Positions 3,067 to 63,540 of a DNA stretch of 64,000 nucleotides are shown here, piece after piece. The position numbers were made by a program, and so were the translations under genes. This stretch comes from an uncultured Candidatus Binatia bacterium (GTDB lineage: Bacteria > Desulfobacterota > Binatia > Bin18): NCBI GenBank assembly GCA_958296235.1, contig OY282457.1, positions 2,597,338-2,661,337 on the forward strand, in the 5' to 3' direction. Below the pieces are notes generated by a model that had not been told where the DNA came from, did no database searches, and worked only from the letters and a program-made list of their open reading frames with translations. Within the stretch, counting starts at the first letter, position 1. Every line of letters starts with the position of its first letter.

Positions 3067-3153
3067 GGTCTAGTGAAGGATCACTTTCTTTGACAGAGGC
3101 TTCTATTACCAAGCAGTCGCCTGCGCATCGTTGAGTTGACACGGACGGATATT

Positions 3154-5581: not shown

Positions 5582-5852
5582 TGTACATCTCCTGCTATCG
5601 TGCTGAACCACACGACAGGTGTACCACGTGGCCTTAACCTGCACCACTACCAGAAGACTGGCTGGAGGCATTGAATCGCCAACATGGGATCGACCGTAGA
5701 AGCCAGGAGGGGCGAGGTTGGCGTATTCTACAGGAGATGAACAACGGGTGGCCCACCATTAACCGTGAAATTTGTAATGTGCTCACGAAGAACGCGCGGG
5801 CACGCATTACGTGCTTGCAGGGGCTGCGCTCAAGAGCACATCAACAGCGGGA

Positions 5853-6065: not shown

Positions 6066-6081
6066 GGCTCCCTCCAGGTTG

Positions 6082-8591: not shown

Positions 8592-8604
8592 AGTGAATGG
8601 TGGG

Positions 8605-8952
8605 CTAGACAGAGAAGGAGCTACCGCAGCCGCACGCACGTTTGATATTGGGATTCGTCAGCTTAAAGCCCGAATCCATTAAAGTCTCGGAAAAATCCAA
8701 CTCTGTCCCGCGGAGATAGATAAAGCTTTTTCGGTCAACAATGACTTTGGCGCTTTCCCGCTCAAAGACACGGTCGCCGTCACGTGGAATATCCAGGTCC
8801 ATCTTATAGGACAAACCCGAACAGCCTCCACCAACCACCTTGACCCGCAAGCCGCAAGCCTGCCGCCCGTCCTGGACCGTCAGGTCTCCAATCTTTTTGG
8901 CTGCGTTTTCGCTGATGTCGATTTTGAGCTTTGCTTTCCCGCTTGCTGCCAT
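8605..8952 (-). CDS. iscA: Iron-sulfur cluster insertion/scaffold protein IscA (HesB family)
   Basis: 115 aa; GGGCSG and C-terminal CGCGSSF motifs. Confidence 0.9.
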   Translation of the reverse strand: MAASGKAKLKIDISENAAKKIGDLTVQDGRQACGLRVKVVGGGCSGLSYKMDLDIPRDGDRVFERESAKVIVDRKSFIYLRGTELDFSETLMDSGFKLTNPNIKRACGCGSSFSV

Positions 8953-8994
8953 ACCAGTTGTCCCAATCTGCTGTCGGTTTCGGTGTCCGTTGGT

Positions 8995-9408
8995 CTAGGC
9001 GGCATCCTTCTTGGGTGCCCCCGCTCCTTCTGCCCGGTCCCGCCAGTCCGCCACCGCCGCCTTGATCGCATCCTCCGCTAACACCGAACAGTGAATCTTC
9101 ACCGGCGGTAACGCCAACTCGGTCACGATCTCCGTGTTCTTGATCGCCCCCGCCTCCGCCACCGTCTTCCCCTTCACCAACTCCGTCACATAACTCGACG
9201 ACGCGATCGCCGACCCACACCCAAAGGTCTTGAATTTCGCATCTTCTATCACTTCGGTCTGCGGGTTGATCTTCAACTGCAACTTCATCACGTCCCCGCA
9301 CTCCGGGGCCCCCACCACGCCCGTGCCCACGTTGCCTTCCTCGGCCGCAAAACTCCCCACGTTCCGCGGCCGCTCGTAATGCTCTACCACTCGCTCGGTG
9401 TATGCCAT
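8995..9408 (-). CDS. iscU: Fe-S cluster assembly scaffold IscU
   Basis: 137 aa; YERPRNVG, GAPECGDVMKL, FKTFGCGSAIASSS and LPPVKIHCS motifs. Confidence 0.95.
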   Translation of the reverse strand: MAYTERVVEHYERPRNVGSFAAEEGNVGTGVVGAPECGDVMKLQLKINPQTEVIEDAKFKTFGCGSAIASSSYVTELVKGKTVAEAGAIKNTEIVTELALPPVKIHCSVLAEDAIKAAVADWRDRAEGAGAPKKDAA

Positions 9409-13405: not shown

Positions 13406-13473
13406 CAGCCTAGCAGAAAGCTGAAATGGAGGTTAGAGACTGAGGGTCAGGGATGAGGAGTTGACCCCATTCC

Positions 13474-20748: not shown

Positions 20749-21960
20749 TTACGATCCTATTAGTTCTGCGAGAATGTGGTCGAGTTCGCCAGGCGCTCCG
20801 AGGAAAGCAAGGAAGCCCTTGTCCCAAATGGCGCACGTGCGATCCTTGGCCAAGGTCCAGCCGCTCCCGTACTTATCGCCCCCATAGGAGTCGTAGTTCA
20901 CGCGCATATGAAGTGCATGGAGCATCTCTATGGTCTTATGGTCTGACCCAATCTTAAAGGCCGTGTCTTCAAGAAAGCTATTGGGCCAATAGTCAACGAA
21001 GATAAGCGGTGGCTTTGGGTTTTTGCGGCGCGCCTCACGCAGCCGGGCATTGAGGTGCAGGTCGCTGAGGCCATAGCCGAGCACGTAAATGATATCGGCT
21101 ACCATCGCATCGCGGGTTATGCTTGCGTAGTAATGCGAAAATGGCTGATGCTGCAAATGGGAGAGCTTGTCGAGGCCAGTAATCACCGAGGTGCGCCGAG
21201 TTTCGCTCCCGTCCATGCGGCGCTCTCCTGACCCGCTGTAAGATGCGTAACGCAAAGCCTCAGCTCGGCCATCAAACCAATGAAGGGTGCCCAAGTCTGC
21301 ATCTCGTGTCTGTGGGAGACCGAAGCCGAGACGCACCGAACCGTGCAGGTGGAAGACGCAGTCGGCATCAGTCTTCTGCCAGAATTCTTGACCGTCAAAG
21401 CCTTTGGCGTCAGGACGCAGGGCAGAATCAAAGCCGGTGTACAGGTCGGGCGCAGCTTGCAGCAGAAAATCGTCGTAGTTGGTGGTATAGATGCGGGTGA
21501 TATGGTGCTCCCGTAGCTTGGCAAGGAACGTGGTAAGCGGATCAAGACTTGGTGTCGGCTGCTCACAGGCCACAGACACCTCGGCGACGATGAACTTCGC
21601 CATACCCTCGACCAGTGCTCGTAACGCTTGCTGTTCTACCGCGATCCGACATGTGATAAGCGGCACGAGAAGCGGTCGATACTCGTTCACAGCTCCGGGG
21701 ATAGGCTCGAAGGTGAACAGGAGCTCATGGGCACAGTGATAAATGTGCTCGAAGTTGACTGCGTGCTCACCGTCTTCGAGGTAGCCCGCGAGGGCCTGGC
21801 TAATCTGCAAGTAGGCGTCGTCGCCACCGCATTTCTGCATCCACTCGTCGGCACGCACCCTCGTCTCGATAGCTTTTGTCAGCTCGGCAGTGCCAGGTGC
21901 CCCGAATTCAAGTGAGGCACCCGCCCCTGCTAAAATCAGCGCACGCTTCTTCCGTTCCAT
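20749..21960 (-). CDS. SIR2-like (SIR2_2 family) protein, stand-alone
   Basis: 403 aa; LILAGAGASLEFG, YTTNYDDF and FHLHGS motifs characteristic of defence-type SIR2 domains; uncharacterised C-terminal ~150 aa. Confidence 0.75.
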   Translation of the reverse strand: MERKKRALILAGAGASLEFGAPGTAELTKAIETRVRADEWMQKCGGDDAYLQISQALAGYLEDGEHAVNFEHIYHCAHELLFTFEPIPGAVNEYRPLLVPLITCRIAVEQQALRALVEGMAKFIVAEVSVACEQPTPSLDPLTTFLAKLREHHITRIYTTNYDDFLLQAAPDLYTGFDSALRPDAKGFDGQEFWQKTDADCVFHLHGSVRLGFGLPQTRDADLGTLHWFDGRAEALRYASYSGSGERRMDGSETRRTSVITGLDKLSHLQHQPFSHYYASITRDAMVADIIYVLGYGLSDLHLNARLREARRKNPKPPLIFVDYWPNSFLEDTAFKIGSDHKTIEMLHALHMRVNYDSYGGDKYGSGWTLAKDRTCAIWDKGFLAFLGAPGELDHILAELIGS

Positions 21961-22175
21961 CCCTACATCACTTTCCGGTTCCCTTCGCTTAGCCGAGAGT
22001 CTTTATATCATAATGCTGGAATTGAGTCATGCTCTGAGGTTGCTGCCAGCTTTCCGCTCAAGGAGTTAGGACCACACATTGCCAATTGGAGCGAGTTTTG
22101 GACGGAGCGCAATGAGCCGCAGAGCAGATTGAGAGGCGAGTTGGAGCGTATCCGAACAGCCTGCTCGTCTCACCT

Positions 22176-24965
22176 TTACCGCTTCCGTCTTCGACGTTTT
22201 CTCTTGATCGCGGCTGCGAGCGGAGCCCTCATCTTCTCATACAACCCAAACAGATGTTCCACCCGCTCCCGCTCGGAGGCAAAGCCGCCGGGGCGGTACA
22301 GCCGGTCTACTGTGCGGTTGAGGGCTTGGTGGGCCTTGCGTAGATTGGGCGGCATCAGGTCGGGGTCGTACAGGTCGGCCAGGGTTGCGCCGGGATGGGC
22401 CGTGCGGGCGTCAAGGACGGCCTGTGCCAGCGCTTCCAGTTTTGTCAGCTTCGTGCCTTCGGGCGGGAGAGGAAAGGTGTTGTAGACCAGGCCGATAGAA
22501 TAGCGATAACGGCTTTCCAGCCGTCCGCCGACGTGGCGTAACCAAGCCATGTGCATGGCGGAGGTCAGTAGAGCAAAATCCGAGAGAGTGGCGTTCTCAA
22601 TAACCCGAACCAGATTGCTCGGAATCACTGGCGGCTCCAACCAACCTATCGGTACATATTCCCGCCGTTCAGAACTCACTTCCGGGACAACCAGAAACGG
22701 CGCGGTCGGGATGACATTCACATGATAGAGGGTTGGCGTTGCAGCCAGCGCTTGCGTAGGTTTGCTCTTGCTGGCTTGGCGGTAGGCGCGAACCGCAGCG
22801 ATGCGTTCCTTGATATGTGGCAGCCTCGCCAGTGCTGTCGGTGGCGCGTCATGCAGGGCAAAAATCCAGCGTGTTCCGCCTTGCAGATATTCACGCGCCC
22901 CGATAAAGGGCCGCAGGAAGACTGCGGCGTCCGGCTCAGCGTCCAGGAAGGCCGCGCGTTCCTCGGGATCGAAAATATAATGGCCGCCGTCAATGGGCTT
23001 TGAACCGATAATCAGCTTTTCCATCCCGTTAATCGGGCGGTTTTGTTTGCGCACGGTCAGATGCGGGTCGGCCAAGCCGTCGGCGTCGAACAGGTAGGGC
23101 GACAGCGCGGTATGGCGGGTTTCCTCCGGGTCGCCGTTGAGGTCGGGGTAAGAAAAGAGGCGCTTCTCCGTCCGGGCGTTGTCCCGCCGGTCCAGCCCGA
23201 GAATGACGACATGGACATGCGCCTTGCCGCGTGCATCCGAACCCCAGGCAAAGGTACGGTGGGCAAAGGCAATCTCCAGCCGGTAGCGGTTGAACAGAAG
23301 AGGCCAGAGTTGTCCGACCTGCTCACCCTGCGTGGTCGAATTGGTCGCCACAAAGCCAATCCGAGTCTGCCCGGTGGCATACGCGCCCGCCTTGAGGAAC
23401 CAGGCCGTCACGTAATCCAGGGTCCCACCGCTCCCGCCCAGACCGGCGATGCTGCGCACCTGCGCTCGCTGTGTCCGGTTCTGAAGCTTCGCGCCGACAA
23501 ACGGCGGATTGCCGAGCACGTAACGGCACTGCTCCGGCAGAAGAACATCCGTCCAATCGGTTTCCAGGGCATCGCCGTGTACGATATGGGGCGAGACGGT
23601 GAGCGGAATACGTGCGTAGGTCTGGCCGAATTCCAGGCTGAGCCGGTTGTTCATGATGTGGTCCATAATCCACAGCGCGGTCTCGGCAATGCGGGTGGGG
23701 AACGCACCGATCTCAATGCCGTAGAACTGGTCCACATTCACCACCGACAGAGTGGTCACGTCCAGCTCGCCCGTCCTGGCGTCATCCCGATAGGCCCGTA
23801 GCTCCTGTAGGACCTCCATCTCCAGGGTGCGTAACTCCCGGTAGGCAATAATCAGAAAATTGCCACAGCCACAGGCCGGGTCCAGAAAGGTCAGTTGCCC
23901 GAGCCGCTGCTGAAACCGTTGAAGCTCCACCCGCCGCCGGCTGTCCTTGCGGGCCTTCAGGCACATGAACTCCGCCTTGAGGTCGTCCAGGAACAAAGGC
24001 TCAATCACCTTCAGGATGTTCTGCTCGGTGGTGTAATGCGCGCCTTGAGAACGGCGTTCGGCAGGTTGCATGACCGACTGGAACAGCGCGCCAAAAATTG
24101 CCGGAGAGATGGCGGTCCAGTCAAATCGGCAGGCGTCAAGCAGGGCCTGACGCATGGGGGCGGTGAAGGACGGAATGCGGGCCGGCTCCCGGAACAGCGC
24201 GCCATTCACATACGGAAATCGGGCTAAATCTTCGTCCAGCGTGGCCGGGCGGTTGGCCTCGGGCGTGTCCAACACCTGAAAAAGCTGAGCCAGCCACGGC
24301 CCCAAGTCAGCACCGTCCTCACCTGTGCGGATTTCCAGGAAATCAAGAAAGCTGTCGCGCGGCTCGAAGATGCCGGTATCGTCCGCAAACAGGCAGAACA
24401 CGGTACGCACCAGAAACAATTCCAGGTCGTGGCCGGCATAGCCGGACTGTTCAAGCGCGTCGTGCAGGTCGCCCATGAGTTCGGAGGCTTGGATATTGAC
24501 CGGGTCCTGATCCTTGAAGGCGCGCTTTTGTACGCCCAGGATGAAGCCGAACTTCTCGACGTGTTGGGCGAGGTCGGCCAGGGCAAAGGAGGCGCGCTCG
24601 CGTTCGTCCAGGTCGTGCAACTCGAAGGTCTGGAAGTCGCTGACCAGGATGTAGCGCGGGCGGTCGCGTTCGGGCAGGGCGTCAAAATAGTGGCCAGCCT
24701 GCCCGAACGCCTGGGTCAGGTCACGCCCGGCGCTCTTGTGTTCAACCAGCAGCACGCCCGGCCAGAACAGGTCGATGAAGCCAGAACGATTGTCCAGCTT
24801 CTTAATATGCTCTTCGTAGCGCGCCACCGAACGGCGCTGTACGCCGAAGACCTCGAAGAAGTCATTATAGAAGCTCTGCGTCTCGCCTTTCTCATAGGCC
24901 GCATCGGCCCACTTCCGGGCAAACCCCGCGGCGCGGGCGCGTACTTCGTTCCAGGAGAGGCGCAT
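22176..24965 (-). CDS. MmeI-like type IIL/IIG restriction-modification enzyme (fused nuclease plus N6-adenine methyltransferase plus specificity domain)
   Basis: 929 aa. The N-terminus MRLSWNEVRARAAGFARKWADA...FFEVFGV...IDLFWPGVLLVEHKS parallels my recollection of the MmeI nuclease domain. SAM motif DPACGCGNFL and catalytic NPPFVG are present. Confidence 0.9.
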   Translation of the reverse strand: MRLSWNEVRARAAGFARKWADAAYEKGETQSFYNDFFEVFGVQRRSVARYEEHIKKLDNRSGFIDLFWPGVLLVEHKSAGRDLTQAFGQAGHYFDALPERDRPRYILVSDFQTFELHDLDERERASFALADLAQHVEKFGFILGVQKRAFKDQDPVNIQASELMGDLHDALEQSGYAGHDLELFLVRTVFCLFADDTGIFEPRDSFLDFLEIRTGEDGADLGPWLAQLFQVLDTPEANRPATLDEDLARFPYVNGALFREPARIPSFTAPMRQALLDACRFDWTAISPAIFGALFQSVMQPAERRSQGAHYTTEQNILKVIEPLFLDDLKAEFMCLKARKDSRRRVELQRFQQRLGQLTFLDPACGCGNFLIIAYRELRTLEMEVLQELRAYRDDARTGELDVTTLSVVNVDQFYGIEIGAFPTRIAETALWIMDHIMNNRLSLEFGQTYARIPLTVSPHIVHGDALETDWTDVLLPEQCRYVLGNPPFVGAKLQNRTQRAQVRSIAGLGGSGGTLDYVTAWFLKAGAYATGQTRIGFVATNSTTQGEQVGQLWPLLFNRYRLEIAFAHRTFAWGSDARGKAHVHVVILGLDRRDNARTEKRLFSYPDLNGDPEETRHTALSPYLFDADGLADPHLTVRKQNRPINGMEKLIIGSKPIDGGHYIFDPEERAAFLDAEPDAAVFLRPFIGAREYLQGGTRWIFALHDAPPTALARLPHIKERIAAVRAYRQASKSKPTQALAATPTLYHVNVIPTAPFLVVPEVSSERREYVPIGWLEPPVIPSNLVRVIENATLSDFALLTSAMHMAWLRHVGGRLESRYRYSIGLVYNTFPLPPEGTKLTKLEALAQAVLDARTAHPGATLADLYDPDLMPPNLRKAHQALNRTVDRLYRPGGFASERERVEHLFGLYEKMRAPLAAAIKRKRRRRKR

Positions 24966-40474: not shown

Positions 40475-41029
40475 CTACGACCACAACCCGAGTACTGCGA
40501 GAAGCTTTCGTAAGTGTTGATCGTATGTGGCCGCACGCCGAACATCATCCAGTGTGAAACGTTGGCGCAACTGCTCGGCTGTCGGCGGTTTTTGATACGC
40601 AGGCCACATCTTCCGTAGCTCGCTTTCCGAGTCGGATGCCCTAATCTTTCTTTGTTCCTGTCCTGCATGTAGCCGGACTAAGAGGCCTTCCAGATTAGGG
40701 TCTTGAAAAATGACTTCGAGCTTATAGCGAGTTGCGGCGGCCTGAGCCTGAATCCCTTCTTGCGGTTCGGCTTCAATCCGGTCGCGGTCCAGCAATACCA
40801 ATCTCGCCTGGTATTCGCGCCGGGAACGATTCCTTTTTAACCAGCGTCCTGCTTGTTCGATAACGGCCACGGAGCCACCGCCGTCTTGTGGCTTAATGTC
40901 AAGATGCACATACAAGCCTGCCTCATCGCAAAGGTACTGAAGAAAACGCGCAAAGGGACGCTCGCTCTGGCCTTCGCCAGCTATGAAGAAGCTACGACGT
41001 GGCCGAACCGGACGTCGGCGAGCGCGCAT
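40475..41029 (-). CDS. RloB-like (Toprim-related) protein, AbiLii-like
   Basis: 184 aa; FFIAGEGQSERPFARFL resembles the RloB (I/V)xCEGxxTE motif. It lies 6 nt downstream of the AAA ATPase gene. Confidence 0.7.
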   Translation of the reverse strand: MRARRRPVRPRRSFFIAGEGQSERPFARFLQYLCDEAGLYVHLDIKPQDGGGSVAVIEQAGRWLKRNRSRREYQARLVLLDRDRIEAEPQEGIQAQAAATRYKLEVIFQDPNLEGLLVRLHAGQEQRKIRASDSESELRKMWPAYQKPPTAEQLRQRFTLDDVRRAATYDQHLRKLLAVLGLWS

Positions 41030-41035
41030 CGTGCC

Positions 41036-42241
41036 CTAACCGATTTTCGGAATGCCACCCAGCACGCCGGCACGATACTTAGGGTAGAGCCGCGTGTCAC
41101 GCCGCAGCCCGCTCACGTCCTGGGCGGCGTGTACGCGAGTTGCGCTGTCCGGGCCCTTTTCAACAATGAAGAGTTCTTCCTTCTCCAGATCGTCAAGCAG
41201 GCCAACATTGTGGGCGGTGACAAGGAGCTGGGCGTTGTGCGGATTCGTCTTGCGGTCGTGAAACCAGTGGATGATCTCGTTGACGATATCTACGTGCAGG
41301 TCACCGTCAATCTCGTCAAGGATGACCGGATCGGCGGTGGCAAGGGCAAACCGGATTTGAGGCAAAATGTGGAACAAGCGTTTTGTACCGCTGGACTCGA
41401 ACGGCAGGGGGACAGCACCGTCGAGTCCGTGATGATGGAAGAACGCCTGCTTCTTCGTACCGTCGAGACGGATATCCACGTCCTGGATTGCCAGGTCGCT
41501 ACGCTGCATCTGCCGTTTCATCCAGCTTTTCATGGCGTCGTCCGCGTAGAGGTCCATAACCCTTTCGGTCGAAGGCTGCCAGTTGCCCTGAGTGGTAATG
41601 TTCGAGAATACATAGCCTCGTTGCAGCCCGTTAGCCATCTGTCTGGCGATATGGACGTTAAGCATCATAAGCGTCGCTATCACCGAAGCGTCAGCCTGAA
41701 CTGCATCCAGGCGCGGGTCTTTTGGCTTCAGCCCGAACTTGGGAGAAACGTAGATCGCTTTCCCAGGTGTGCCACGTTCAAAGAGTCGTCGAGGCCGGCC
41801 TTTCGGAAAGTGGAACAAGGCTTCGCGAAGGATGAAATTGGAAGTCGCAGACGGCTCACGTCCCACGGAGAGTTCATAGCGGAATAACTCTCGGGCTTTA
41901 CCTGGAGTCAGCCAGTCGGCGTCAAATTCTACGCGAAACCTAGTCGGCTCATTTTGGGCCTTTTCCGATAAAAAGGGGAGAATCTCGTTAATTGGAGCCT
42001 CTGCTGTTGATAAGCTGGGTATCGAGGCAATCCGCATAACGTCCACCAAAGCTCGGAGCAAGGTCGTCTTGCCCGAGCCGTTCGGGCCCATGATGACAGC
42101 CACAGTCGGAAGCCGAACATCGGGCTTAGCCTTGCTCTGTCGAAAACGCGGCAAGGCGGGCGCTGTGCCGGGTACGCGCAAATCGAGAACGGCTTCCTCG
42201 TAGATAGAAAAATAGTTAGACACTGAAAATTCATAAATCAC
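41036..42241 (-). CDS. AAA_15/21-type ATP-binding protein, AbiLi-like
   Basis: 401 aa; MIYEFSVSNYFSI N-terminus, GPNGSGKTTLL Walker A, PVILDEIDGDLH Walker B, LLVTAHN. Confidence 0.85.
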   Translation of the reverse strand: MIYEFSVSNYFSIYEEAVLDLRVPGTAPALPRFRQSKAKPDVRLPTVAVIMGPNGSGKTTLLRALVDVMRIASIPSLSTAEAPINEILPFLSEKAQNEPTRFRVEFDADWLTPGKARELFRYELSVGREPSATSNFILREALFHFPKGRPRRLFERGTPGKAIYVSPKFGLKPKDPRLDAVQADASVIATLMMLNVHIARQMANGLQRGYVFSNITTQGNWQPSTERVMDLYADDAMKSWMKRQMQRSDLAIQDVDIRLDGTKKQAFFHHHGLDGAVPLPFESSGTKRLFHILPQIRFALATADPVILDEIDGDLHVDIVNEIIHWFHDRKTNPHNAQLLVTAHNVGLLDDLEKEELFIVEKGPDSATRVHAAQDVSGLRRDTRLYPKYRAGVLGGIPKIG

Positions 42242-55335: not shown

Positions 55336-56523
55336 ATGTCAGGACCATTGGCTGGTTATCGCGTTATTGACGTTACCCAGATGTTGTCAGGCCCTATGGC
55401 CACTATGATGCTGGGCGATCAAGGGGCGGATGTCATCAAGGTCGAACCGCCGGAAACGGGCGATCTGACCCGTGCCCTGGGTGGGAAGTCACGGCCCATT
55501 TCCCCGTTTTTTTCCACCTTGAATCGGAATAAGCGCTCGGTGGTCCTGAATCTGAAAGACGAAAAGGGAATTGGGTTGCTCAAAGACCTCGTCGCCGGGG
55601 CGGATGTGTTTGTCCAGAATTTCCGGCCCGGCATAGCCGAGCGCATGGGCATTGGTGAGGATGTTCTGCGCCAAGTGAAACCGGACCTCATCTATGTATC
55701 CATCAGCGGCTTTGGCGAGAAAGGACCGTATGTTGGCAAGCGCGTCTATGATCCGGTCATCCAGGCGCTGTCCGGTCTGGCCGATATTCAGGCCGACCCG
55801 GATACTGGCCGACCGCGTATGATGCGGCTCATCATTCCCGACAAGGTCACGGCCCTGACCGCGGCCCAGGCCATTACCGCGGCACTCCTGGCCCGGGAAC
55901 GGACCGGGGAGGGGCAGCATGTCCGGCTCGCCATGCTGGACGCGGTTGTCTCGTTTCTGTGGCATGAGGGCATGACGCAGTACACCTTCATGGGCTCGGA
56001 CATCGGCCCGGCCCGACCGGCTGACACGCGGGATATGGTCTTTGAGACCGCGGACGGCTATATCACCGCGGCTGCGGTCTCGGACAAGGAGTGGCAGGGC
56101 ATGACGCGTGCCCTGGAGCGGCCCGAATGGCTGGAGGACGCCCGGTTCAGCACGCCTGCCGGGCGGGTCAAATACGCCGACGTGCGGTTGGATATGACGG
56201 CCGAGGTCTTGAAAGAAAGAAGCTCGACCGAATGGCTGGAACGTCTCGATGCCGAGCAGGTGCCGTGCGCGCCGGTCAATCGCAAGGCCGACGTATTGAC
56301 CGACCCGCAGGTTGCGGCCAACAATCTGATTGTTGAATCCGATCATCCGCACGCCGGCCATATGCGCCAGGCCCGGCCGGCGGCGCGGTTCGAGGGCACG
56401 CCCGCAGAACTCCTGCGTCAGCCGGCCCCGCTGCTGGGCGAGCAGACAGACGCGATTCTGGCCGAACTGGGCCTGTCGGCGGACGCCTTGGCAGAGTTGC
56501 GTGAGGCCGGGGCGATTGCCTGA
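55336..56523 (+). CDS. Family III CoA-transferase (CaiB/BaiF)
   Basis: 395 aa; GPLAGYRVIDVTQMLSGP N-terminus and catalytic-Asp region typical of the family. Confidence 0.9.
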   Translation: MSGPLAGYRVIDVTQMLSGPMATMMLGDQGADVIKVEPPETGDLTRALGGKSRPISPFFSTLNRNKRSVVLNLKDEKGIGLLKDLVAGADVFVQNFRPGIAERMGIGEDVLRQVKPDLIYVSISGFGEKGPYVGKRVYDPVIQALSGLADIQADPDTGRPRMMRLIIPDKVTALTAAQAITAALLARERTGEGQHVRLAMLDAVVSFLWHEGMTQYTFMGSDIGPARPADTRDMVFETADGYITAAAVSDKEWQGMTRALERPEWLEDARFSTPAGRVKYADVRLDMTAEVLKERSSTEWLERLDAEQVPCAPVNRKADVLTDPQVAANNLIVESDHPHAGHMRQARPAARFEGTPAELLRQPAPLLGEQTDAILAELGLSADALAELREAGAIA

Positions 56524-56542
56524 CGCCTGGTCTCCGCAAGAA

Positions 56543-56836
56543 ATGAAACTCCTTGGGCGCGCTGTCCGATGGGACAACGAAAAAAATATACGGCTCAAAA
56601 AAACAAGAGGGATCGGGTTTGAAGAGATTGTAGAAGCGATAGAGGATAACCTGCTGGACGATATGAGACATCCCAATGCGGAACGCTATCCGCATCAGAG
56701 GATATTTGTTGTTCGACTTAATGAGTACGCTTACGTCGTCCCCTATGTAGTAGCGGACGACAATTCATACGTTCTCAAAACAGCTTATCCAGATAGAGCT
56801 ATGATGAAAAAGTATTTGCGAGAAGGTGAGGACTAG
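56543..56836 (+). CDS. BrnT-like (DUF497) toxin
   Basis: Start at MKLLGRAVRWDNEKNIRLKKTRGIGFEEI, which matches the BrnT W-D-x-x-K-N...HG(I/V)xFEE pattern; 97 aa. Confidence 0.65.
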   Translation: MKLLGRAVRWDNEKNIRLKKTRGIGFEEIVEAIEDNLLDDMRHPNAERYPHQRIFVVRLNEYAYVVPYVVADDNSYVLKTAYPDRAMMKKYLREGED

Positions 56837-56838
56837 CC

Positions 56839-57534
56839 ATGCCCGCCGAGTATGTTCACTTTCACGACGAGCCGCTGGACGAGGAGGAACGACAGTTGAT
56901 GAAGGAACTGGACGCTGGGGAATGGGTTTCCGATCCTGACTTTCTTCGTACAGGTCCGTTTGTGGAGACTATCTCTGCACTCGAAGTGGCTGCTGACGAG
57001 CTTGCACGCACCCGAACGGACTCGTATCGCTGGAAATGGGTTATCCTGGCATTGCACAGCGCCTTACAGGGCATGATGGCCCTGGCGCTTGAAGGGGGTA
57101 ATGGGCTCAGAGTGCTGAAACCCAAGGACGCAAAGCGATGGCTGGACGCTTACGAAAGCGGTGCCCCGCTCCCGGCAGACCTGGAAATGGACAGCTTTCT
57201 CAATCTGTATGAGAAGATCAAAAGCGAGACCCTTCGTTTTTATGTAACCAGCAAAAAGCTTACGCCTGAAGAAATTCAAGAAAAGTCGATCAAGGACCTT
57301 AACCGGCTCCGAAATCAATTCATCCATTTCACCCCGTGTACCTTGTCTCTCATATTGAACGGACTTCCAGAAATGACGCTTGACTGCCTGAACATTGCTC
57401 GGTTTCTTGCCTATGACTCGGGGAACATAGATTGGCCTGAAGAGTTGGTTGAGCGACTGGAAAAAGCCTTCAGGGCCGCGGCTCAGGCAGCACGGGAGAT
57501 AAAAGAAGCCTACGCTCTCCCGCCTCAGGTATGA
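56839..57534 (+). CDS. Hypothetical protein: antitoxin-like N-terminal motif fused to a helical domain with an R-x4-H (HEPN-like) motif
   Basis: 231 aa starting 3 nt after the BrnT-like stop. LDEEERQLMKELDAGEWVS resembles the N-terminal motif of BrnT-associated CopG-type antitoxins. NRLRNQFIHF is present later. Confidence 0.65.
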   Translation: MPAEYVHFHDEPLDEEERQLMKELDAGEWVSDPDFLRTGPFVETISALEVAADELARTRTDSYRWKWVILALHSALQGMMALALEGGNGLRVLKPKDAKRWLDAYESGAPLPADLEMDSFLNLYEKIKSETLRFYVTSKKLTPEEIQEKSIKDLNRLRNQFIHFTPCTLSLILNGLPEMTLDCLNIARFLAYDSGNIDWPEELVERLEKAFRAAAQAAREIKEAYALPPQV

Positions 57535-57549
57535 GAATATTCCTCTCGC

Positions 57550-57639
57550 ATGGGCGAGCAAACGGACGCGATTCTGACGGAACTGGACTTGTCTGCGGAC
57601 ACAGTGGAGGAGCTGCGTGAGGCTGGCACGATTACCTGA
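57550..57639 (+). other. Duplicated copy 2 of the CoA-transferase 3' end (30 codons, intact frame and stop)
   Basis: MGEQTDAILTELDLSADTVEELREAGTIT-stop versus the native LGEQTDAILAELGLSADALAELREAGAIA-stop. 72 of 90 nt are identical by hand alignment to 56434-56523. Confidence 0.85.
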
Positions 57640-57712
57640 CCGAAGAGGGCGGCATGGTGAAGCAGTAACTGAGAATTATCAGCAATAATGCTACTCCAAG
57701 ATAAGGACCGTC

Positions 57713-57907
57713 ATGACACCAGAACTGATCGCTATCATCGCCGCAACCGTGGCACTAGCCGGACTTATTCTGAACGGCAATCGCGGTCTGACCCAGCGCA
57801 TGGACCGTCTGAAGGATCGACTTGCAAGCGTGGAACGCGAGCAAGCCCACTTGGCGGGATTACTCGAAGGGCTTCGGGAAGCTATCAGCGGCCACCTCGC
57901 CGCTTAA
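57713..57907 (+). CDS. Small membrane-anchored coiled-coil protein
   Basis: 64 aa; LIAIIAATVALAGLIL followed by RMDRLKDRLASVEREQAHLAGLLEGLREAI. Confidence 0.45.
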   Translation: MTPELIAIIAATVALAGLILNGNRGLTQRMDRLKDRLASVEREQAHLAGLLEGLREAISGHLAA

Positions 57908-57970
57908 GCATCGCTTATACTCTCTCGCCTCAGCTAGGAGAGCATTACTCCCGTGTCAATCTCGCTACCG

Positions 57971-58054
57971 GGCGAGAAGATGGGCGCGATTCTGATGGAA
58001 CTGTTCTTGTCTACGGACACAGTGAAGGGTTTGCCTGAAGTTAGAAATATTGCC
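57971..58054 (+). other. Degenerate copy 3 of the CoA-transferase 3' end
   Basis: GEKMGAILMELFLSTDTVKGLPEVRNIA. 64 of 84 nt are identical to copy 2 by hand alignment. The homologous stop codon is lost. Confidence 0.75.
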
Positions 58055-58118
58055 CGCTTCCCTGTGGACGAGAATGTCTTTGATTTACTGAATTAGTGGT
58101 TAGGGGGTTGGGTCGCTG

Positions 58119-58411
58119 TCAAGCGGAGTTTTGTTTTTCTTTTTCGTATTGCTCCCATCCGAAACTGGTCAAGTCAACCACGAAAAACTTGGAACTTCCA
58201 CAGGTTTTGACAGGATGCAACATGGTAATGACTCTCTCATCAGACAGCTCTTCCATAAGTTGACAAACAACTTGGTTGTCCCGTGCGCCTATTTCTTCCT
58301 GGATGTCTTTCCACCAAAGTTCCAGAATCGGTCCCTGTAATTGCGATATTTTGTCTCCAATATAAAGACTAAGCTCTCGTTTTGTTGTGTAGGACTAATG
58401 AATTCACTCAT
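58119..58411 (-). pseudogene. Small gene downstream of the 738-aa gene, apparently frameshifted
   Basis: ATG at 58411 with GAGGAGGA upstream gives MSEFISPTQQNESLV..., which stops after 38 codons. A second frame continues SLYIGDKISQLQGPILELWWKDIQEEIGARDNQVVCQLMEELSDERVITMLHPVKTCGSSKFFVVDLTSFGWEQYEKEKQNSA-stop at 58119. The span is 293 nt, not a multiple of 3. Confidence 0.35.
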
Positions 58412-58444
58412 AATCTAGTCTCCTCCTCAAACTCGGGAATGCCG

Positions 58445-60661
58445 TTATGTTTTCGACCGCCAGGGAATAGCGGCGAAAAAACTTTTCAACTCCTCGCAAC
58501 GTTGCAGCCTGAGTTCGAGAATCCGAAGGTTCTCTTGCGAGCCTCCAAAGGCAGTTCGCAACTCCTCCACATACTTCTTGTGAGCCTCGTCAAGGCTATC
58601 TGCTCCCTCTTGAAAGGCGGCCAAAGTTTCGTCCCAAAACTTCTTGACTGTCCCTTCAAGAGTCGACAAAACTCGTTCTTCAACAAACAATTCTCTAATT
58701 TTTTTGGCTAAACGATACCGCCAATTGCCTGCGAAAATCCGCCATACCAGTGCTCCGACGCCAACAGCTATTGCTAACCCCAAAGTAACCGGCCCCCCCA
58801 AAGTGGCGACAATTGAGGTCACGCCAGCCGCTCCAGCCGCCGACGCGGAAGAGATGCCCAATGCAGCGGCCGCCTTGGCAACTATGATATACCCGCCAAG
58901 ATTTCCTAACGTGGCCGCCCAGGCTCCAAGCGCCCCAAGCGTTCCGAGCCCGGCTAATCCGCCCAGAAATGCTGCCTTTGCGTCAAATGAAAATCCAGAA
59001 TCTCCCGGTGCCGCATCGCTAAACTCTCCCATTTTCTCATCATAGTCTTGCACGAATTTTTCAATGAGGTCCCGAGTATCGTCAATTAGCCCTGATCGAA
59101 AACGCGCTGTCTTGGATTGAATCTCTTCCAGGACGTATCCAGCGGCAAGCTTTTGCGCGTCTTTTTTATTTGCGTAGCGCCGTTCGATCATCGCTTCCAG
59201 GTTTTCAATCCACGTTTCGTTCTGGAAGACCGTTCGTACATTTTCCAGGTCTCGGTCCTTGAAAGAGGTTATTTTGTGTTTGACGCGCTCAACTAGCGTG
59301 CCATGTTCCTTTCTTCTTGCGGGTTCCGCCTCTTCCAGCTTCTCAAGGAGGCTCTTTGCCTCATTTTTCTTTCTCAGAAGTTTTTCATACTTGCCAATTC
59401 GCTTCGCATAGAAGGCTGGTCCTTCCTCCTTGAAGCGGCGAATTTCACGTCCCGCGTCTCTCGTCTGAATAGTTGGCATACGTGCCTCCAGGAGAAGCTT
59501 CAGCGCGTATTCCAGCTTTTGCCGTCGTGCGGGAGTTTCCTGGTAAAAGCTGAAAAAGCGGGCTTGAACGTCCTCGAACGCGATGGGCCGTCCAATCTGA
59601 CGCTTCAAGTCCTCAAAGAGATTCCCTTCAAAATGCCGGTAAAAATCCTGCGCTCCCTTCTCCAAAATTTCACCGGTGATCTGGTCGATTGTGATACCCG
59701 GATGAGCGTGTGAGGCAACGATGAAAAAGTTGCCGAGAACCGGGAAATGCTCGTCGCTCGCTTCATAGTGAGGAATCTTGCGCAACAAATGACCGATACG
59801 CATGAAGTCTCCGCTATCCAGGAATCCTTGAGCGCGGCAGATGTAGATCAAGGCAGAAGCTTGACTCCCAGCTTGGTCAATGAGCGTGGCTTTGGTCTGC
59901 GTGTCATCGTAGCCGGGCAAATCTACGAGGACGCATGAGTGGAGCAGCGGAGCGTTGACGAAAGCCAAGACGGCCCCTTCCTTATCGCTATCGTCCGCAC
60001 TGTGGAGCGTTGCGTGTTCTTTGAGCGTATCCCAACTCCCGGCCAGTCTCCGGTTTTCTGTACAGTGCTGTTTGTCATGCCACTTCTCAGGCTCGAACTC
60101 CGGCCCCATGAGCCATAGGTCTTCCTTGAGCCAGTCGGGACGGTCGGACGTATGGTGAACAAAGGTCGGATATTTTGTCGTCGGACGGTAGGCGGTCGGC
60201 AGATATGGGCCACCGAGATAAAAATTACAAAGATGGGATTTGCCCGCGTCGAAGTGTCCGGTGACCACGATCCACGGTTTTTCTGTGAGGGCAGTCACGC
60301 GGTTACGGAATTGCGCGACAGTAAAAGGGCCGTCTTCTCCCTCACTTGTCTCCTCCAGATTGGGAAAGCGGTCGATGTATTGCTGGAGCAGGTGCAAATT
60401 TTCGGTCAAGTCGGCGTAAGGGCTGTCATCAAAACCAAAAATAGGCGTCATATCGACTGACTCATTATCGCCGGGTAAGATGTCGTCCGCCGTTACGCCG
60501 AGGAGCCGTGCCCACAGTTTTATCAGGCGAGGAGGAATTTCTTCGCTTTCCTCATATTTAGAGATTTGACCCTGCGTAATCCCGAGCTGTTGAGCGAGAT
60601 CAGCTTGGGTCAATCCTGCCTGTTGCCGGAGTTCCGCCAACCTGGACCTATTTGAAACCAT
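58445..60661 (-). CDS. XRE-type HTH / dynamin-like P-loop NTPase / coiled coil / Gly-Ala-rich membrane hairpin fusion protein
   Basis: 738 aa. N-terminal LRQQAGLTQADLAQQLGITQGQISKYE (Cro/C1 HTH). GHFDAGKS (G1) and VLVDLPGYDD (G3-like DxPG). Long charged helical region. FLGGLAGLGTLGALGAWAATLGNLGGYIIV...LGLAIAVGVGALVWRIF hydrophobic hairpin. GAGGAGGA RBS. Confidence 0.85.
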   Translation of the reverse strand: MVSNRSRLAELRQQAGLTQADLAQQLGITQGQISKYEESEEIPPRLIKLWARLLGVTADDILPGDNESVDMTPIFGFDDSPYADLTENLHLLQQYIDRFPNLEETSEGEDGPFTVAQFRNRVTALTEKPWIVVTGHFDAGKSHLCNFYLGGPYLPTAYRPTTKYPTFVHHTSDRPDWLKEDLWLMGPEFEPEKWHDKQHCTENRRLAGSWDTLKEHATLHSADDSDKEGAVLAFVNAPLLHSCVLVDLPGYDDTQTKATLIDQAGSQASALIYICRAQGFLDSGDFMRIGHLLRKIPHYEASDEHFPVLGNFFIVASHAHPGITIDQITGEILEKGAQDFYRHFEGNLFEDLKRQIGRPIAFEDVQARFFSFYQETPARRQKLEYALKLLLEARMPTIQTRDAGREIRRFKEEGPAFYAKRIGKYEKLLRKKNEAKSLLEKLEEAEPARRKEHGTLVERVKHKITSFKDRDLENVRTVFQNETWIENLEAMIERRYANKKDAQKLAAGYVLEEIQSKTARFRSGLIDDTRDLIEKFVQDYDEKMGEFSDAAPGDSGFSFDAKAAFLGGLAGLGTLGALGAWAATLGNLGGYIIVAKAAAALGISSASAAGAAGVTSIVATLGGPVTLGLAIAVGVGALVWRIFAGNWRYRLAKKIRELFVEERVLSTLEGTVKKFWDETLAAFQEGADSLDEAHKKYVEELRTAFGGSQENLRILELRLQRCEELKSFFAAIPWRSKT

Positions 60662-60825
60662 GACCTATCCTCCTCTGTACCGTATATGCTGAGACAGATA
60701 TAAATATAAAAAATATAATTGTCAAGGATTTTATTAGTGAAAATAATCTATATTTGTATATATTTACGTTAATAATTCCATAATTATCTGTTGATGTTGA
60801 TAATTAATACACATAAAATATCCAC
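60662..60825. promoter_or_regulatory. Extremely AT-rich divergent promoter region between the HTH-NTPase gene and the RHH-MazF operon
   Basis: A 164-bp spacer consisting almost entirely of A/T runs (atataaatataaaaaatataattg..., ttgtatatatttacgttaataatt...) in an otherwise GC-rich window. Confidence 0.45.
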
Positions 60826-61056
60826 ATGAAAGCAATACAAATTACCTTTGACGAAGGGCTCTTGGAAACGCTCGATCAGGACGAAGAGGTCCAACAGAAA
60901 GGCCGCTCGGCGGTCATCCGTCGAGCGGTGACTGACTATTTGCGCAAGAAACACCGGGAGGCGATTGCAGCGGCCTACCAACGCGGCTATGGCAAACACC
61001 CGACAGACTCAGACCTCAATGGCTGGGCGGATCAAGGAATATGGCCAGACGAGTAG
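60826..61056 (+). CDS. Ribbon-helix-helix (CopG/MazE-like) antitoxin
   Basis: 76 aa; MKAIQITFDEGLLETLD...RSAVIRRAVTDYL RHH pattern; 16-nt overlap with the mazF-like gene. Confidence 0.8.
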   Translation: MKAIQITFDEGLLETLDQDEEVQQKGRSAVIRRAVTDYLRKKHREAIAAAYQRGYGKHPTDSDLNGWADQGIWPDE

Positions 61057-61373
61057 AAATCGCCAGGGGAGAAGTCTGGACGTACGAGTTTCGGCGACCG
61101 GATAAACGCCGCCCTGTCTTAGTCCTCAGCCGGTCAGAGGCTATCAATATACTTCATACGGTACTCGTCGCCCCGCTCACGTCAACGATTCGTGGCCTTC
61201 CTAGCGAAGTCGTAGTCGGAACGACAGAAGGCCTTAAGCGTGAGTCGGCGATCAATCTCGATCATATTCAGACTGTCGAACGCACTCATTTATCTCACTA
61301 TATTGGTCGCCTGAAGCCGGATCAGATGCAAGCAGTATGTCGGGCAATAGCTGTTGCAACCGGATGTGACTGA
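61041..61373 (+). CDS. mazF: MazF/PemK family endoribonuclease toxin
   Basis: 110 aa; RGEVWTYEF...KRRPVLVLS...VLVAPLTST...INLDHIQTV pattern. Confidence 0.9.
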   Translation: MARRVEIARGEVWTYEFRRPDKRRPVLVLSRSEAINILHTVLVAPLTSTIRGLPSEVVVGTTEGLKRESAINLDHIQTVERTHLSHYIGRLKPDQMQAVCRAIAVATGCD

Positions 61374-61393
61374 ACATCTGGCAGAGTTCTTTC

Positions 61394-62587
61394 TTACCGC
61401 CACAAGCGGCCGGCCTTCCAGAGCAGGCTCAGCAGCACGACCCAGAACACCTGGGCGCCAAGCGCCGCCGCCCACAGGAACCAAGCCAGTTTATCGGCAA
61501 GGGCGCACAGCAGCACGAGCAGAGAATAATCGCGGCTGGTCAGCCCGGCGACCATCTTGTCAATCCAGACATCTTCCCAGCCACCGCGCGCCCGGCCGGC
61601 GTCTTCGGTTTTCTCAGCCCGTGTCACCAATGGGAAGGAAATGAACGCGGCCGCGGCCAGCAGACCGCCGAGCAGCGGAGCGGCAGCCAGTCCATCCTGT
61701 TTCCACACCGCCACCCCAACCCCGAGAAAAATGGCAATATGGACCACCGTATCCAGCGTGATGTCGAGCCACTCTCCCAGCGGCGATTCCAGCATTTTGA
61801 CCCGCGCCACCTCCCCGTCCACGCAGTCAAGAACGGTTGAGAACTGAAGCAACAACGCCCCAAGCACCGACCCGCCATAACTGCCAAACAGGAAGCAACT
61901 CGCGCCCAGCAGTCCGGTCAGAAACGACAGGACGGTAATCTGATTGGGCGTCAGCGGGGTGCGGAGAAAAAGGCGGGTGAGCAGCCGGGAGCAACTGCGA
62001 TTGAGGTAAGCATCAACCAGACCGTCACGCGGGTTTTCCAGGGTGAGGAGAAAGGTGTGTTCGACCGCGCCCCAGTCGTCCTGTTGGGTCAAACGACGCA
62101 AGAAGTGCTGACCGGGGGGCCGCGCCGGAAGCGGTTCTGTCTGCTCTGCCGGCAGGCGGCCCTCCCTCGTCCAGGCCGTCAGCAGCAAAGAGAGTTGCGC
62201 CAGCGGGGCAACTGCCAGGCTGGCATGATTGGGTCCGCCACGCACCCGCCAGCCGTCCTCGTGTTCTCGTCCCACGTCCTGAATCAAGGCTGGGCGGAAA
62301 AGCGTATCGCACGAAAAAACCAGACAGGGCCGGCTGTCGGAAGGGAGATGCGCCGGCAGCGGACCGTGCGGCGTGACCCATACTATGTCTGCGGTGAGGC
62401 GCGGGTCATTCGCCAAAGAATCTTGCAGGGTTGCTGCCTCTTCATTATGAGCCAATACGTAGCAGACCTGTGCGCCCGCTCGCTGGGCGGTCAGCAGCGC
62501 TCGCTTCAGCAGCGAGAGTCCGCCAAATTGCGTCAGTGGAGACGGGACGTCCACTCCTCCGGTTGAGATCACAGCAGCATGAACCAT
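61394..62587 (-). CDS. Fusion of a nucleotidyltransferase-like N-domain with a CDP-alcohol phosphatidyltransferase membrane domain
   Basis: 397 aa; DCVDGEVAR...D (D-x2-DG-x2-AR) motif within multi-TM helices; soluble ~170-aa N-terminal domain with FGGLSLLKRAL. Confidence 0.8.
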   Translation of the reverse strand: MVHAAVISTGGVDVPSPLTQFGGLSLLKRALLTAQRAGAQVCYVLAHNEEAATLQDSLANDPRLTADIVWVTPHGPLPAHLPSDSRPCLVFSCDTLFRPALIQDVGREHEDGWRVRGGPNHASLAVAPLAQLSLLLTAWTREGRLPAEQTEPLPARPPGQHFLRRLTQQDDWGAVEHTFLLTLENPRDGLVDAYLNRSCSRLLTRLFLRTPLTPNQITVLSFLTGLLGASCFLFGSYGGSVLGALLLQFSTVLDCVDGEVARVKMLESPLGEWLDITLDTVVHIAIFLGVGVAVWKQDGLAAAPLLGGLLAAAAFISFPLVTRAEKTEDAGRARGGWEDVWIDKMVAGLTSRDYSLLVLLCALADKLAWFLWAAALGAQVFWVVLLSLLWKAGRLWR

Positions 62588-62712: not shown

Positions 62713-63513
62713 ATGAGTATGGAACGGTCTGATATGAAGCCTGGGTATGGGGTGTCCCGCCTGGTCGCGTGCGGGCTGAGTGGCCTGCTTCTGGTCGCCT
62801 GCGCCACGGAGAAAAAAAATTTCATGACCTCGGCGAGAGAGCTTGAAAGCCGGACATTATTTGCCCCGGCGATGAAGCAGTACGAAGAGGCCATCGAAGA
62901 GAACCCCAATAATGCCGAAGCCTACTATCGTATTGGGGCGTTGGCCAACGAGATTGGCAACACGGAGTTTGCGGCCCAAAAGTTTCGCCAGGCCCTGCAT
63001 ATCGACGCCAATCATCCGGGGGCGAAACGGGCGCTGTCAACCTACCATATCAATCGTGGGACGATTGCTCGGCAACAGGGCAGGCTGAGCGAGGCCCGGA
63101 GCGAGTTGCAAGCCGCGGCGCGGGTTGATCCAGGCTCAAGCGTAGCCCAGCTTGAACTCGGACGGGTCCACGAAGCCGAGGGCCACCTTGACGACGCCCT
63201 GCAAGCCTACAGCGCCGCGGCTGCGGCCGACCCGCAAAACATTGACACCCAACTGGCGCTCGGACAGGGCTATCTCGTCCAAAAGCAGTACGCTAAGGCG
63301 GTGACAGCGCTGAAGGTGGTGCTGGACACCAACCCGGACAGGGCGGAAGCCTATGCTGGTCTGGGGGAAGCCTATTTTCACCAGGGCAAGAAGCAGGTGG
63401 CCCGGCAATCCTTTGAGCAGGCTATTCGGCACTACCTGCTCACCGGGCGGCGCGACTTGGCCAGGCAGGTTCAGGAGAGGATGGACGCCTTGAGAGTGAT
63501 AAGTGGAGAGTGA
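62713..63513 (+). CDS. TPR-repeat lipoprotein
   Basis: 266 aa; lipobox-like LLLVAC; multiple TPRs (AEAYYRIG, AEAYAGLGEAY). Confidence 0.8.
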   Translation: MSMERSDMKPGYGVSRLVACGLSGLLLVACATEKKNFMTSARELESRTLFAPAMKQYEEAIEENPNNAEAYYRIGALANEIGNTEFAAQKFRQALHIDANHPGAKRALSTYHINRGTIARQQGRLSEARSELQAAARVDPGSSVAQLELGRVHEAEGHLDDALQAYSAAAAADPQNIDTQLALGQGYLVQKQYAKAVTALKVVLDTNPDRAEAYAGLGEAYFHQGKKQVARQSFEQAIRHYLLTGRRDLARQVQERMDALRVISGE

Positions 63514-63540
63514 TAAGTGGAGAGTGATAAGTGGAGAGTC
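63492..63540 (+). repeat. 14-bp tandem repeat gagagtgataagtg x3.5
   Basis: Read directly. It overlaps the last codons and the stop of the TPR lipoprotein gene. Each unit contains tgataa. Confidence 0.9.

Follow-up and report, generated by a model that had tools for sequence, protein, structure and literature searches.

Displaced copies of a CoA-transferase gene tail in a strain-variable islet of a Candidatus Binatia bacterium, and their possible assembly without a dedicated integrase

Where displaced copies of a gene tail form a ladder, an integrase is normally held responsible. Tandem accretion at the 3' end of a target gene has been described for integrative and conjugative elements (ICE), integrative and mobilizable elements (IME) and cis-mobilizable elements (CIME) (PMC5704250; Pavlovic 2004 and Bellanger 2011, cited there). 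In the effector-immunity arrays of Rhs, contact-dependent inhibition (CDI) and type VI secretion systems (T6SS), sequential displacement has been attributed to homology-anchored and illegitimate recombination (PMC5361080). Cassettes are also exchanged as minimal mobile elements, in hotspots flanked by core genes (Saunders and Snyder 2002, cited in PMC3787668; PMC5635113; PMC10250203), and the H47 island of E. coli, a small genomic island without a recombinase, was shown experimentally to excise between short direct repeats independently of RecA (PMC5426353). Here, we describe a locus comparable to each of these in a stretch of 64 kb from an uncultured Candidatus Binatia bacterium (contig OY282457.1; the whole stretch is called the window below). 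In this locus, the end of a family III CoA-transferase gene is present three times, and we lean towards the explanation that the copies mark a recombination-built array within a strain-variable islet, the captured tail acting as a homology arm without a dedicated integrase.

When the three copies were aligned, copy 1 (56434-56523, the end of the gene itself) and copy 2 (57550-57639) were identical at 72 of 90 nt, copy 2 and copy 3 (57971-58054) at 64 of 84 nt, and copies 1 and 3 at 55 of 84 nt. The first two values reproduced the hand counts of the initial annotation, made from the sequence alone, which had reported the threefold presence of the gene end. A repeat finder independently recovered a single family at 56435-56524, 57551-57640 (81%) and 57969-58058 (63%). 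The similarity also survived statistical alignment, as copy 1 reached a top local score of 55 in the 4.9-kb islet, compared with 11.2 ± 1.4 (maximum 17) for 200 shuffles; copy 3 gave a score of 27 when aligned with copy 1 and of 45 with copy 2. No further tail copy was found in the window. The two pseudo-copies proved to be about 120 nt long each, since they start some 33 nt further upstream than had been seen, at the equivalent of position 56404. This upstream extension is named Text, and the part noted originally is named T. The features of the islet and its flanks are the following.

55336-56523, plus strand: family III CoA-transferase gene, 395 aa, conserved left flank (Pfam CoA_transf_3, E 2e-110).
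56404-56523, plus strand: T1, the functional last ~120 nt of the CoA-transferase gene (Text and T), from the alignment of functional and pseudo-tails.
56524-57507, plus strand: cassette A, a BrnT-like open reading frame (ORF; 56543-56836) and a 231-aa HEPN-like ORF (56839-57534, its last codons within M).
57508-57536, plus strand: M2, conserved cassette-end motif GCCTACGCTCTCCCGCCTCAGGTATGAGA.
57537-57639, plus strand: pseudo-tail of unit 2, a truncated Text (57537-57549) and T2 (57550-57639, stop codon kept).
57640-57912, plus strand: cassette B, a 64-aa membrane/coiled-coil ORF (57713-57907) without a family match.
57913-57941, plus strand: M3, second copy of the cassette-end motif, non-coding here.
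57942-58054, plus strand: pseudo-tail of unit 3, Text (57942-57970, with the shared 4-nt deletion) and T3 (57971-58054, stop codon lost).
58055-58444, no strand: lineage-specific spacer after T3, present only in the window, L001 and L002.
58445-60661, minus strand: segment C, a gene for a helix-turn-helix (HTH) and dynamin-like NTPase protein, 738 aa (Pfam HTH_3 and Dynamin_N).
60662-60825, no strand: AT-rich (~34% GC) divergent intergenic region with promoter-like sites.
60826-61373, plus strand: segment D, a ribbon-helix-helix (RHH) antitoxin (60826-61056) and a MazF/PemK toxin (61041-61373) (Pfam RHH_1, PemK_toxin).
61394-62587, minus strand: CDP-alcohol phosphatidyltransferase-family gene, convergent, conserved right flank (Pfam CDP-OH_P_transf; synteny in all close loci).

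The islet (56524-61390) lies between the convergent CoA-transferase and CDP-alcohol phosphatidyltransferase-family genes and is AT-richer than its surroundings, with a GC content of about 0.45-0.55 against 0.60-0.66 in the flanks. At its right end a fourth tail copy is absent, and from about 61378, a few bases past the MazF stop codon, the sequence is native again; thus, only cassettes A and B are delimited by copies. Cassette B is unrelated to cassette A. The spacer 58055-58444 showed no protein or DNA similarity to other parts of the islet, and no gene remnant was recognized in it.

The site was compared in about 25 loci with matching flanking genes from Candidatus Binatia relatives; all the evidence presented here is comparative and drawn from metagenome assemblies. 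All related loci carried an intact orthologue of the CoA-transferase with an invariant length of 395 aa. Some 15 sites were differently filled, and four close and three more distant genomes had an empty site, as listed below.

L003, L004, L007 and L083: empty site, 64-70 nt between the two stop codons.
L010-L012 (more distant): empty site.
L006 and L170/L171: cassette A only.
L008: cassette B only.
L163/L167: A-M-B-M-hairpin-Uma2.
L168: 6-kb islet with additional genes.
L009: A (tandem HEPN), an extra gene, C and an RHH remnant.
L173: A1-M-tail-A2-M-C-RHH remnant.
L164/L165: A1-M-tail-A2-M-partial tail, with BrnT-HEPN cassettes in both units.
L169: A-M-partial tail.
L005: A-M-partial tail-RHH remnant.
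L002: as in the window, with another A allele and without C.
L001: as in the window, with A deleted.

Variable content, empty sites included, is therefore enclosed by constant flanking genes, as expected of a hotspot or a minimal mobile element, and the earlier proposal of an insertion hotspot was borne out. The same proposal had counted three delimited cassettes. This applies to A and B, whereas the HTH-NTPase gene and the MazEF-type pair have no bounding copy and are segments that vary independently: C occurs in L009 and L173 but is missing from L002, and D is cut to an RHH remnant, with MazF lost, in L005, L008, L009, L164, L169, L170 and L173. In L008, cassette B stands immediately behind the functional gene, and in L163 and L168 it comes after M. 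A scan of metagenomes added one close locus, L083. When 155 CoA-transferase loci with a locatable gene end (of 162 fetched) were scanned for tail duplicates, these were detected in L001 and L002 only; the truncated copy of L005 fell below the threshold of the scan and was found separately. Loci fetched later contained full copies (L164/L165 and L173) or truncated ones (L169, L172 and L175), while in L006, L008, L163, L168 and L170 cassettes with M lack a right-hand tail copy.

A motif of about 30 nt, M (GCCTAYRCTCTCYCGCCTCAGSTAKGAGA), which had been overlooked, precedes both pseudo-copies of the window, at 57508-57536 and 57913-57941. In cassette A it encodes the final residues of the HEPN-like protein, and after cassette B it is non-coding. 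Its first 18 nt (GCCTACGCTCTCCCGCCT) are nearly invariant: six of six codon third positions are unchanged in ten A alleles that are about 75% identical just upstream. Such conservation of synonymous sites could reflect homogenization by repeated crossovers in M, or a site recognized by a protein, which would look the same.

One and the same M|Text joint occurs in units 2 and 3 of the window, L001, L002, L005, L164/165, L169, L172, L173 and L175. In comparison with every functional gene, the pseudo-copies of window unit 3, L001, L002, L164, L169, L172, L173 and L175 carry the same 4-nt deletion (GTCAGCCGGCCCCGCTG to GTCA-ACTCCGCTG); the stretch concerned fell within a larger deletion in L005 and in unit 2 of the window. 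The common deletion and the common fusion to M imply that the M-plus-tail module arose once, and the single origin of the joint is the conclusion to which the alignments lead. A derivation of Text from the native intergenic spacer, with which it shares TCTCGCTACC, was considered and rejected, the better-preserved copies of L164 and L173 being CoA-transferase sequence with a 4-nt deletion. In L006, L163 and L168, M is followed by a palindromic, terminator-like hairpin in place of the tail, and the 5' half of this hairpin resembles the M-proximal part of the joint. This resemblance suggests that the joint was formed by an illegitimate fusion, through CGCA microhomology, of a cassette end to the gene at a point 120 nt short of the stop codon.

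Could the copies be kept for a function of their own, either as the 29-codon ORF of copy 2 or as a regulatory or terminator RNA? Copy 2 does keep its ATG, frame and stop codon in the window, L001 and L002. Against this, copy 3 is heavily substituted and has lost its stop codon, and the tail copies of L005, L164, L169, L172 and L175 are truncated at differing points. The excess of synonymous changes in copy 2 was not significant (6:6, p = 0.09), so that it also fails as proof that copy 2 once was a functional tail. Neither an Rfam family (no match at E <= 1) nor a terminator-like site was found at the copies. The consensus fold of six joints amounted to -7.2 kcal/mol with 0 compensatory pairs, and no conserved inverted-repeat structure was present at the joint; an attC-like folded site or a known RNA at this position was rejected on the same grounds. 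We regard a function of the copies themselves as very improbable. A diversity-generating retroelement, with its template and variable repeats at a gene 3' end, was likewise rejected, because the differences between the copies span all base types and no reverse transcriptase is encoded in the window.

The manner in which units are added could be read from L164, whose flanks are 94-98% identical to those of its relative L009. Compared with L009, the functional tail of L164 showed 0/52 mismatches in its 5' part and 14/78 in its 3' part, and the pseudo-tail of its unit 2 showed 16/52 and 2/78, respectively (Fisher tests, p = 8e-4 and 6e-6). Furthermore, this pseudo-tail runs on into post-stop sequence and a cassette of the L009 type: A2 is 88% identical to the A of L009, while A1 is only 72-73% identical to the resident A2 and to the A of L009. 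The mosaic is best read as the footprint of one reciprocal crossover in the tail, by which the segment [tail-3' half - A1 - M - Text - tail-5' half] was inserted. In L173, a sister of L164 with the same A1, the 3' halves are swapped. Over the same stretch of 67 nt, mismatches to L009 amounted to 2/67 in the functional tail and 12/67 in the pseudo-tail of L173, against 10/67 and 2/67 in L164 (L173 versus L164, p = 0.03 and 0.009), and the post-stop sequence is L009-like (0/21) after the pseudo-tails of both. The crossover was thus placed about 75 nt before the stop codon in L164 and at the stop codon in L173. Strand exchange did not occur at one fixed core position, as far as two configurations tell, and a crossover point that varies within ~120 nt of homology favours homologous recombination, since a site-specific recombinase predicts a fixed point.

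As to the order of the units, the T2-B junction of the window, TGA|CCGAAGAGGG, is identical to the junction between the functional gene and B in L008. Hence, T2-B would be the relic of an earlier state in which B followed the gene directly, unit A having been added later in front of it; the suggestion that the newest unit lies nearest the gene thereby holds. The modules are heterologous and horizontally acquired, as in displacement arrays, judging by the identities of A1 and A2 (73%) and of A2 and its L009 counterpart (88%), by the swap of A alleles between the window and L002, and by the low GC content.

The classical explanation for such a structure is site-specific accretion, in which A and B would be decayed, integrase-less CIME-like elements joined by recombination of an attP site (M and tail) with an attB site (the gene 3' end) through a tyrosine recombinase located elsewhere or lost. 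Direct repeats of a gene 3' end around stacked foreign cassettes are its textbook signature (PMC5704250). One joint recurs beside different cassettes, M shows DNA-level conservation, as an arm-type binding site would, and in L175 the module lies behind a 77%-identical CoA-transferase in a different neighbourhood. However, no integrase, transposase or resolvase domain was detected in the islet proteins or in 40 further ORFs covering the rest of the window, in agreement with the initial statement that the window holds no integrase, and the Pfam-annotated gene tables of about 20 related loci contained no recombinase apart from unrelated insertion sequence (IS) transposases in L001. The crossover positions of L164 and L173 differ, five loci (L006, L008, L163, L168 and L170) have M without a right-hand tail copy, the units measure just 0.4-1.1 kb, and the joint has no conserved inverted-repeat structure. 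The module was also absent from the plasmid and phage collections searched with blastn and from viral contigs, where the sole match to M (L174) was an unrelated chance 18-mer; a mobile vehicle was consequently dismissed. Together with the pair L006/L083 described next, these observations make a site-specific recombinase unlikely, although the conservation of the 18 nt of M keeps this rival alive.

L006 and L083 have genes 99.6% identical and differ by a 1051-nt cassette that cleanly replaces a spacer of 69 nt. In the right flank, and only there, divergence is elevated, with 8, 10, 19, 42 and 29 mismatches per 250 nt over the first ~1.25 kb and about 2 thereafter. This divergent tract has the character of an import by homologous recombination, so that the exchange was in all likelihood mediated by the flank, with a donor tract in the flanking gene as described for minimal mobile elements; what is seen is a spacer replacement with an import tract, not the precise insertion expected of an integrase. 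Similarly, the window and L002 have 99.5% identical flanks and differ only across 56536-57530, where the single-HEPN A of the window and the tandem-HEPN A of L002 are about 73% identical; the A of L002 is 92% identical to that of L009.

Arrays also appear to contract. L169 is 97-100% identical to A1 of L164 over the first ~830 columns and 98-100% identical to A2 beyond, and this A1/A2 chimera without an intervening unit is readily recognized as a collapse by recombination between units. In L002 (11507-12784), L009 (11507-12799) and L173 (8138-9427), the HEPN-like gene is a tandem two-domain fusion of 425-430 aa, compared with the single 231-aa domain of the window; these fusions look like in-frame collapses of two array units. 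In L001, A was deleted through GGCAG microhomology and the last 50 nt of the HEPN gene were retained. The RHH remnant GGGCGGATCAAGG is the common islet end of L008, L164 and L169. Other deletion joints are carried by L005, L163 and L170, and deletions, some with visible microhomology, also occur in L001 and L008.

Units were found away from the site as well. L172 (6948-8366) contains a fragment of the islet at an unrelated locus, beside luciferase-like and other CoA-transferase-family genes, which comprises the BrnT 3' end, HEPN, M, Text, 75 nt of tail, a Gly-rich 70-aa ORF and a 3' fragment of the dynamin gene. It is cut at both ends and thus seems to have been moved by illegitimate recombination. 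In L175 (7522-9764), from a 6-Mb genome, BrnT-HEPN-M-Text and a partial tail lie right behind the CoA-transferase gene mentioned above, which gene calling had split into 119 and 270 aa and which tblastn aligned end to end. The L175 pseudo-tail scored 26 with alleles of the window clade and 18 with the tail of its own gene. A donor tract in the 3' part of this CoA-transferase was looked for and discarded, as identity shows no clear step. Finally, L176 has the BrnT-HEPN pair at a site without a CoA-transferase.

These comparisons also bear on a purely local origin, according to which the last 120 nt of the gene and the downstream cassette were duplicated or triplicated in tandem and in place, and then diverged without any import. 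The BrnT-HEPN cassettes in both units of L164/L165, the existence of tandem-HEPN fusions and the likeness of the single M|Text joint to a CGCA microhomology fusion of a cassette terminator hairpin to the gene would fit this scheme. Yet A1 and A2 of L164 share only 73% identity, as against 86% between the functional tail and the pseudo-tail, which is neutral; both A2 and the 3' part of this pseudo-tail agree with L009; B is unrelated to A; and A cassettes of ~73% identity lie inside the 99.5%-identical flanks of the window and L002. Moreover, the L175 pseudo-tail is closer to foreign alleles than to its own gene, and the grouping of cassettes and pseudo-tails of one genome with those of other genomes, which would speak against local duplication, is already largely seen. 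A local origin is accordingly improbable.

The explanation that we favour, an array built by recombination with the tail as a homology arm, would proceed as follows. In each array unit, a cassette is followed by M and by a pseudo-copy of the terminal ~120 nt of the CoA-transferase gene. One illegitimate event, either homology-facilitated illegitimate recombination or a microhomology duplication, would have created the first M|tail joint. Incoming DNA made of cassette, M and tail, possibly in the form of an array fragment or of a circle that another array has looped out, would then recombine once and reciprocally with a resident tail copy. As a result, an intact gene would remain in front, and the displaced tail half would be pushed downstream with the content that followed it. 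Repeated rounds would give the ladder T1-A-M-T2-B-M-T3. The most likely catalyst is the homologous recombination machinery of the host, with the tail as a portable homology arm. Recombination between units and microhomology deletions would shrink the array, and whole islets would be swapped or lost through recombination in the flanking genes.

Several points weigh against this scheme. Both crossover configurations come from one related genome pair, and one integration followed by later exchanges is possible in principle. RecA-type recombination works poorly on a stretch as short and diverged as the tail (~120 nt, ~85% identity), and M is conserved at synonymous sites, as a site recognized by a protein would be. 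The search for recombinases covered the window and the related loci, so that a trans-acting enzyme encoded elsewhere in the genome is possible, and neither a circular form nor an empty-after-excision product was observed. In addition, all sequences are metagenome assemblies, though independent ones agree. A more speculative version, which we consider improbable, is that M and the captured tail are the dedicated attachment module of an unrecognized, integron-like cassette-capture platform of Binatia. It would be served by a trans-acting recombinase reading M, or would be a recombinase-free 'homology-arm parasite' travelling on small circles and targeting the end of a housekeeping gene across genera, as L175 hints.

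With regard to the accretion ladder proposed in the initial annotation, the hotspot, the crossover within the tail and the order of the units are retained. Tail copies had been taken as by-products of insertion, and the reciprocal mosaic of L164 and L173 places the crossover within the gene tail, at positions that differ between the two. Two elements of the proposal were given up, namely the third delimited cassette and the premise of integrative elements with an integrase of their own, present or lost: no recombinase was found, the crossover varies, right-hand tail copies are often absent, and tail duplicates are confined to a few lineages. Of the mechanisms that had been offered, the third, replacement by homologous recombination with foreign alleles, is the one favoured by the evidence.

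The gene assignments made from the sequence alone largely hold, the CoA-transferase, the HTH-NTPase and the MazEF-type pair being supported by Pfam. RHH_1 and PemK/MazF pass the Pfam cut-offs and form an adjacent type II toxin-antitoxin (TA) pair. The match of the BrnT-like ORF to Pfam BrnT is weak (22.3 bits for a cut-off of 34.5), and the HEPN assignment is also weak. For the 231-aa protein, the domain search gave no family match. Its residues R158 and H163 (Rx4H) are invariant in 30 homologues, and its structural model is all-helical and confident (predicted local distance difference test, pLDDT, 84.5); a PDB sequence search and Foldseek returned no significant match, HepT, HEPN and Csm6 being among the weak ones only. 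From the invariant Rx4H and the weak fold matches, a HEPN-like protein is plausible. The dynamin-like protein showed a weak PADLOC match to LeoBC, which was the sole result from the defence-system libraries.

The intergenic region 60662-60825, between the dynamin-like gene and the RHH-MazF pair, contains five of the seven promoter-like sites of the 5.2 kb scanned. Beside the dynamin-like gene of L009, a 285-aa protein (12973-13830, minus strand) with a Cys-His (CEHF) motif and a long Gly/Ala-rich C-terminus is encoded, which has a weak PADLOC match to BnzA. In the L168 islet (8123-9091, minus strand), too, the dynamin-like gene has additional neighbours, which code for uncharacterized proteins of 322 and 232 aa, an HTH protein and Uma2. 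In L001, a strain that co-occurs with L002 in one metagenome, the islet past the window equivalent of 58418 is replaced by IS transposase genes; genes of the IS1595 and IS4/5 types lie at 5264-6136 and 12206-14651 and are absent from the window.

Elsewhere in the window, an MmeI-type restriction-modification fusion with all five MmeI domains (20749-24965, minus strand) adjoins a SIR2_2-domain protein and is probably a second defence locus. An AAA_21 ATPase of the AbiEii/OLD-like family followed by a weak RloB-like protein (40475-42241, minus strand) is a candidate two-gene defence pair. Genes for an LRR protein, a TPR protein and an FRG-domain protein are clustered at 1717-4753. Just past a TPR gene, at 63492-63539, lies a perfect tandem repeat with a period of 14 nt, made of three overlapping copies of GAGAGTGATAAGTGGAGAGT.

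If the scheme that we favour is correct, this case shows that a ladder of gene-tail copies can arise and persist without an integrase. A captured piece of a conserved gene would act as a portable homology arm, with whose help small cassettes of TA and defence genes are stacked, exchanged and passed on between strains, and possibly between genera. This is of relevance for island-prediction methods that treat repeats of gene 3' ends as att sites, and for the diversification of integrase-free defence hotspots in Binatota, to our knowledge a phylum known only from metagenomes. The locus also provides a natural test case for recombination between short diverged repeats.

In comparison with described systems, the locus shares with ICE/IME/CIME accretion the direct repeats of a gene 3' end that bound stacked, partly decayed foreign segments, the functional end being restored at each insertion. 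These repeats flank A (T1/T2) and B (T2/T3), but not C and D. Unlike those elements, which encode an integrase and use a fixed core, no integrase was found here, the crossovers vary, the units are below 1.2 kb and the right-hand repeat is often absent; empty sites that are precise excision products, with attL and attR at the occupied sites, were not seen either. Integron arrays are similar in being ordered stacks of small, promoter-poor cassettes at a fixed site, with the oldest farthest away, and they differ by IntI, attI and attC-like folded sites, none of which is present (0 compensatory pairs). Like the H47 island, the array is small, bounded by direct repeats and devoid of a site-specific recombinase of its own, which implies host functions; its mobility, however, is deduced from comparative sequence, and its repeats derive from the end of a coding gene. 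As in minimal mobile elements, alternative cassettes enriched in TA and defence genes lie between two conserved genes, differ among the closest relatives and are swapped through the flanks. The internal duplicates of the flanking gene end set the locus apart, since the captured tail adds recombination anchors and allows stacking.

In outcome, the locus shows the sequential displacement of the Rhs, CDI and T6SS arrays. There, incoming modules recombine with the upstream gene over a conserved stretch, the former 3' ends are displaced together with their partner genes into a decaying ladder, no integrase takes part, and ordinary homologous recombination later moves whole arrays as blocks. Here too, 3' copies of the conserved upstream gene precede the displaced modules. 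In those arrays, the repeat lies within the toxin gene and the displaced pieces are alternative toxic tips, whereas the anchor of the present locus is the tail of an unrelated metabolic gene, not of a polymorphic toxin, the cassettes are free-standing TA and defence ORFs, and a second conserved element, M, stands at the right end of each cassette. Because it departs from integrase-driven accretion, from integrons and, in one respect, from Rhs/CDI arrays, the locus is filed as an integrase-free variant of displacement and accretion arrays, in which TA and defence cassettes would recombine at an anchor, the tail of a housekeeping gene, that was captured a single time along with a cassette-end motif.

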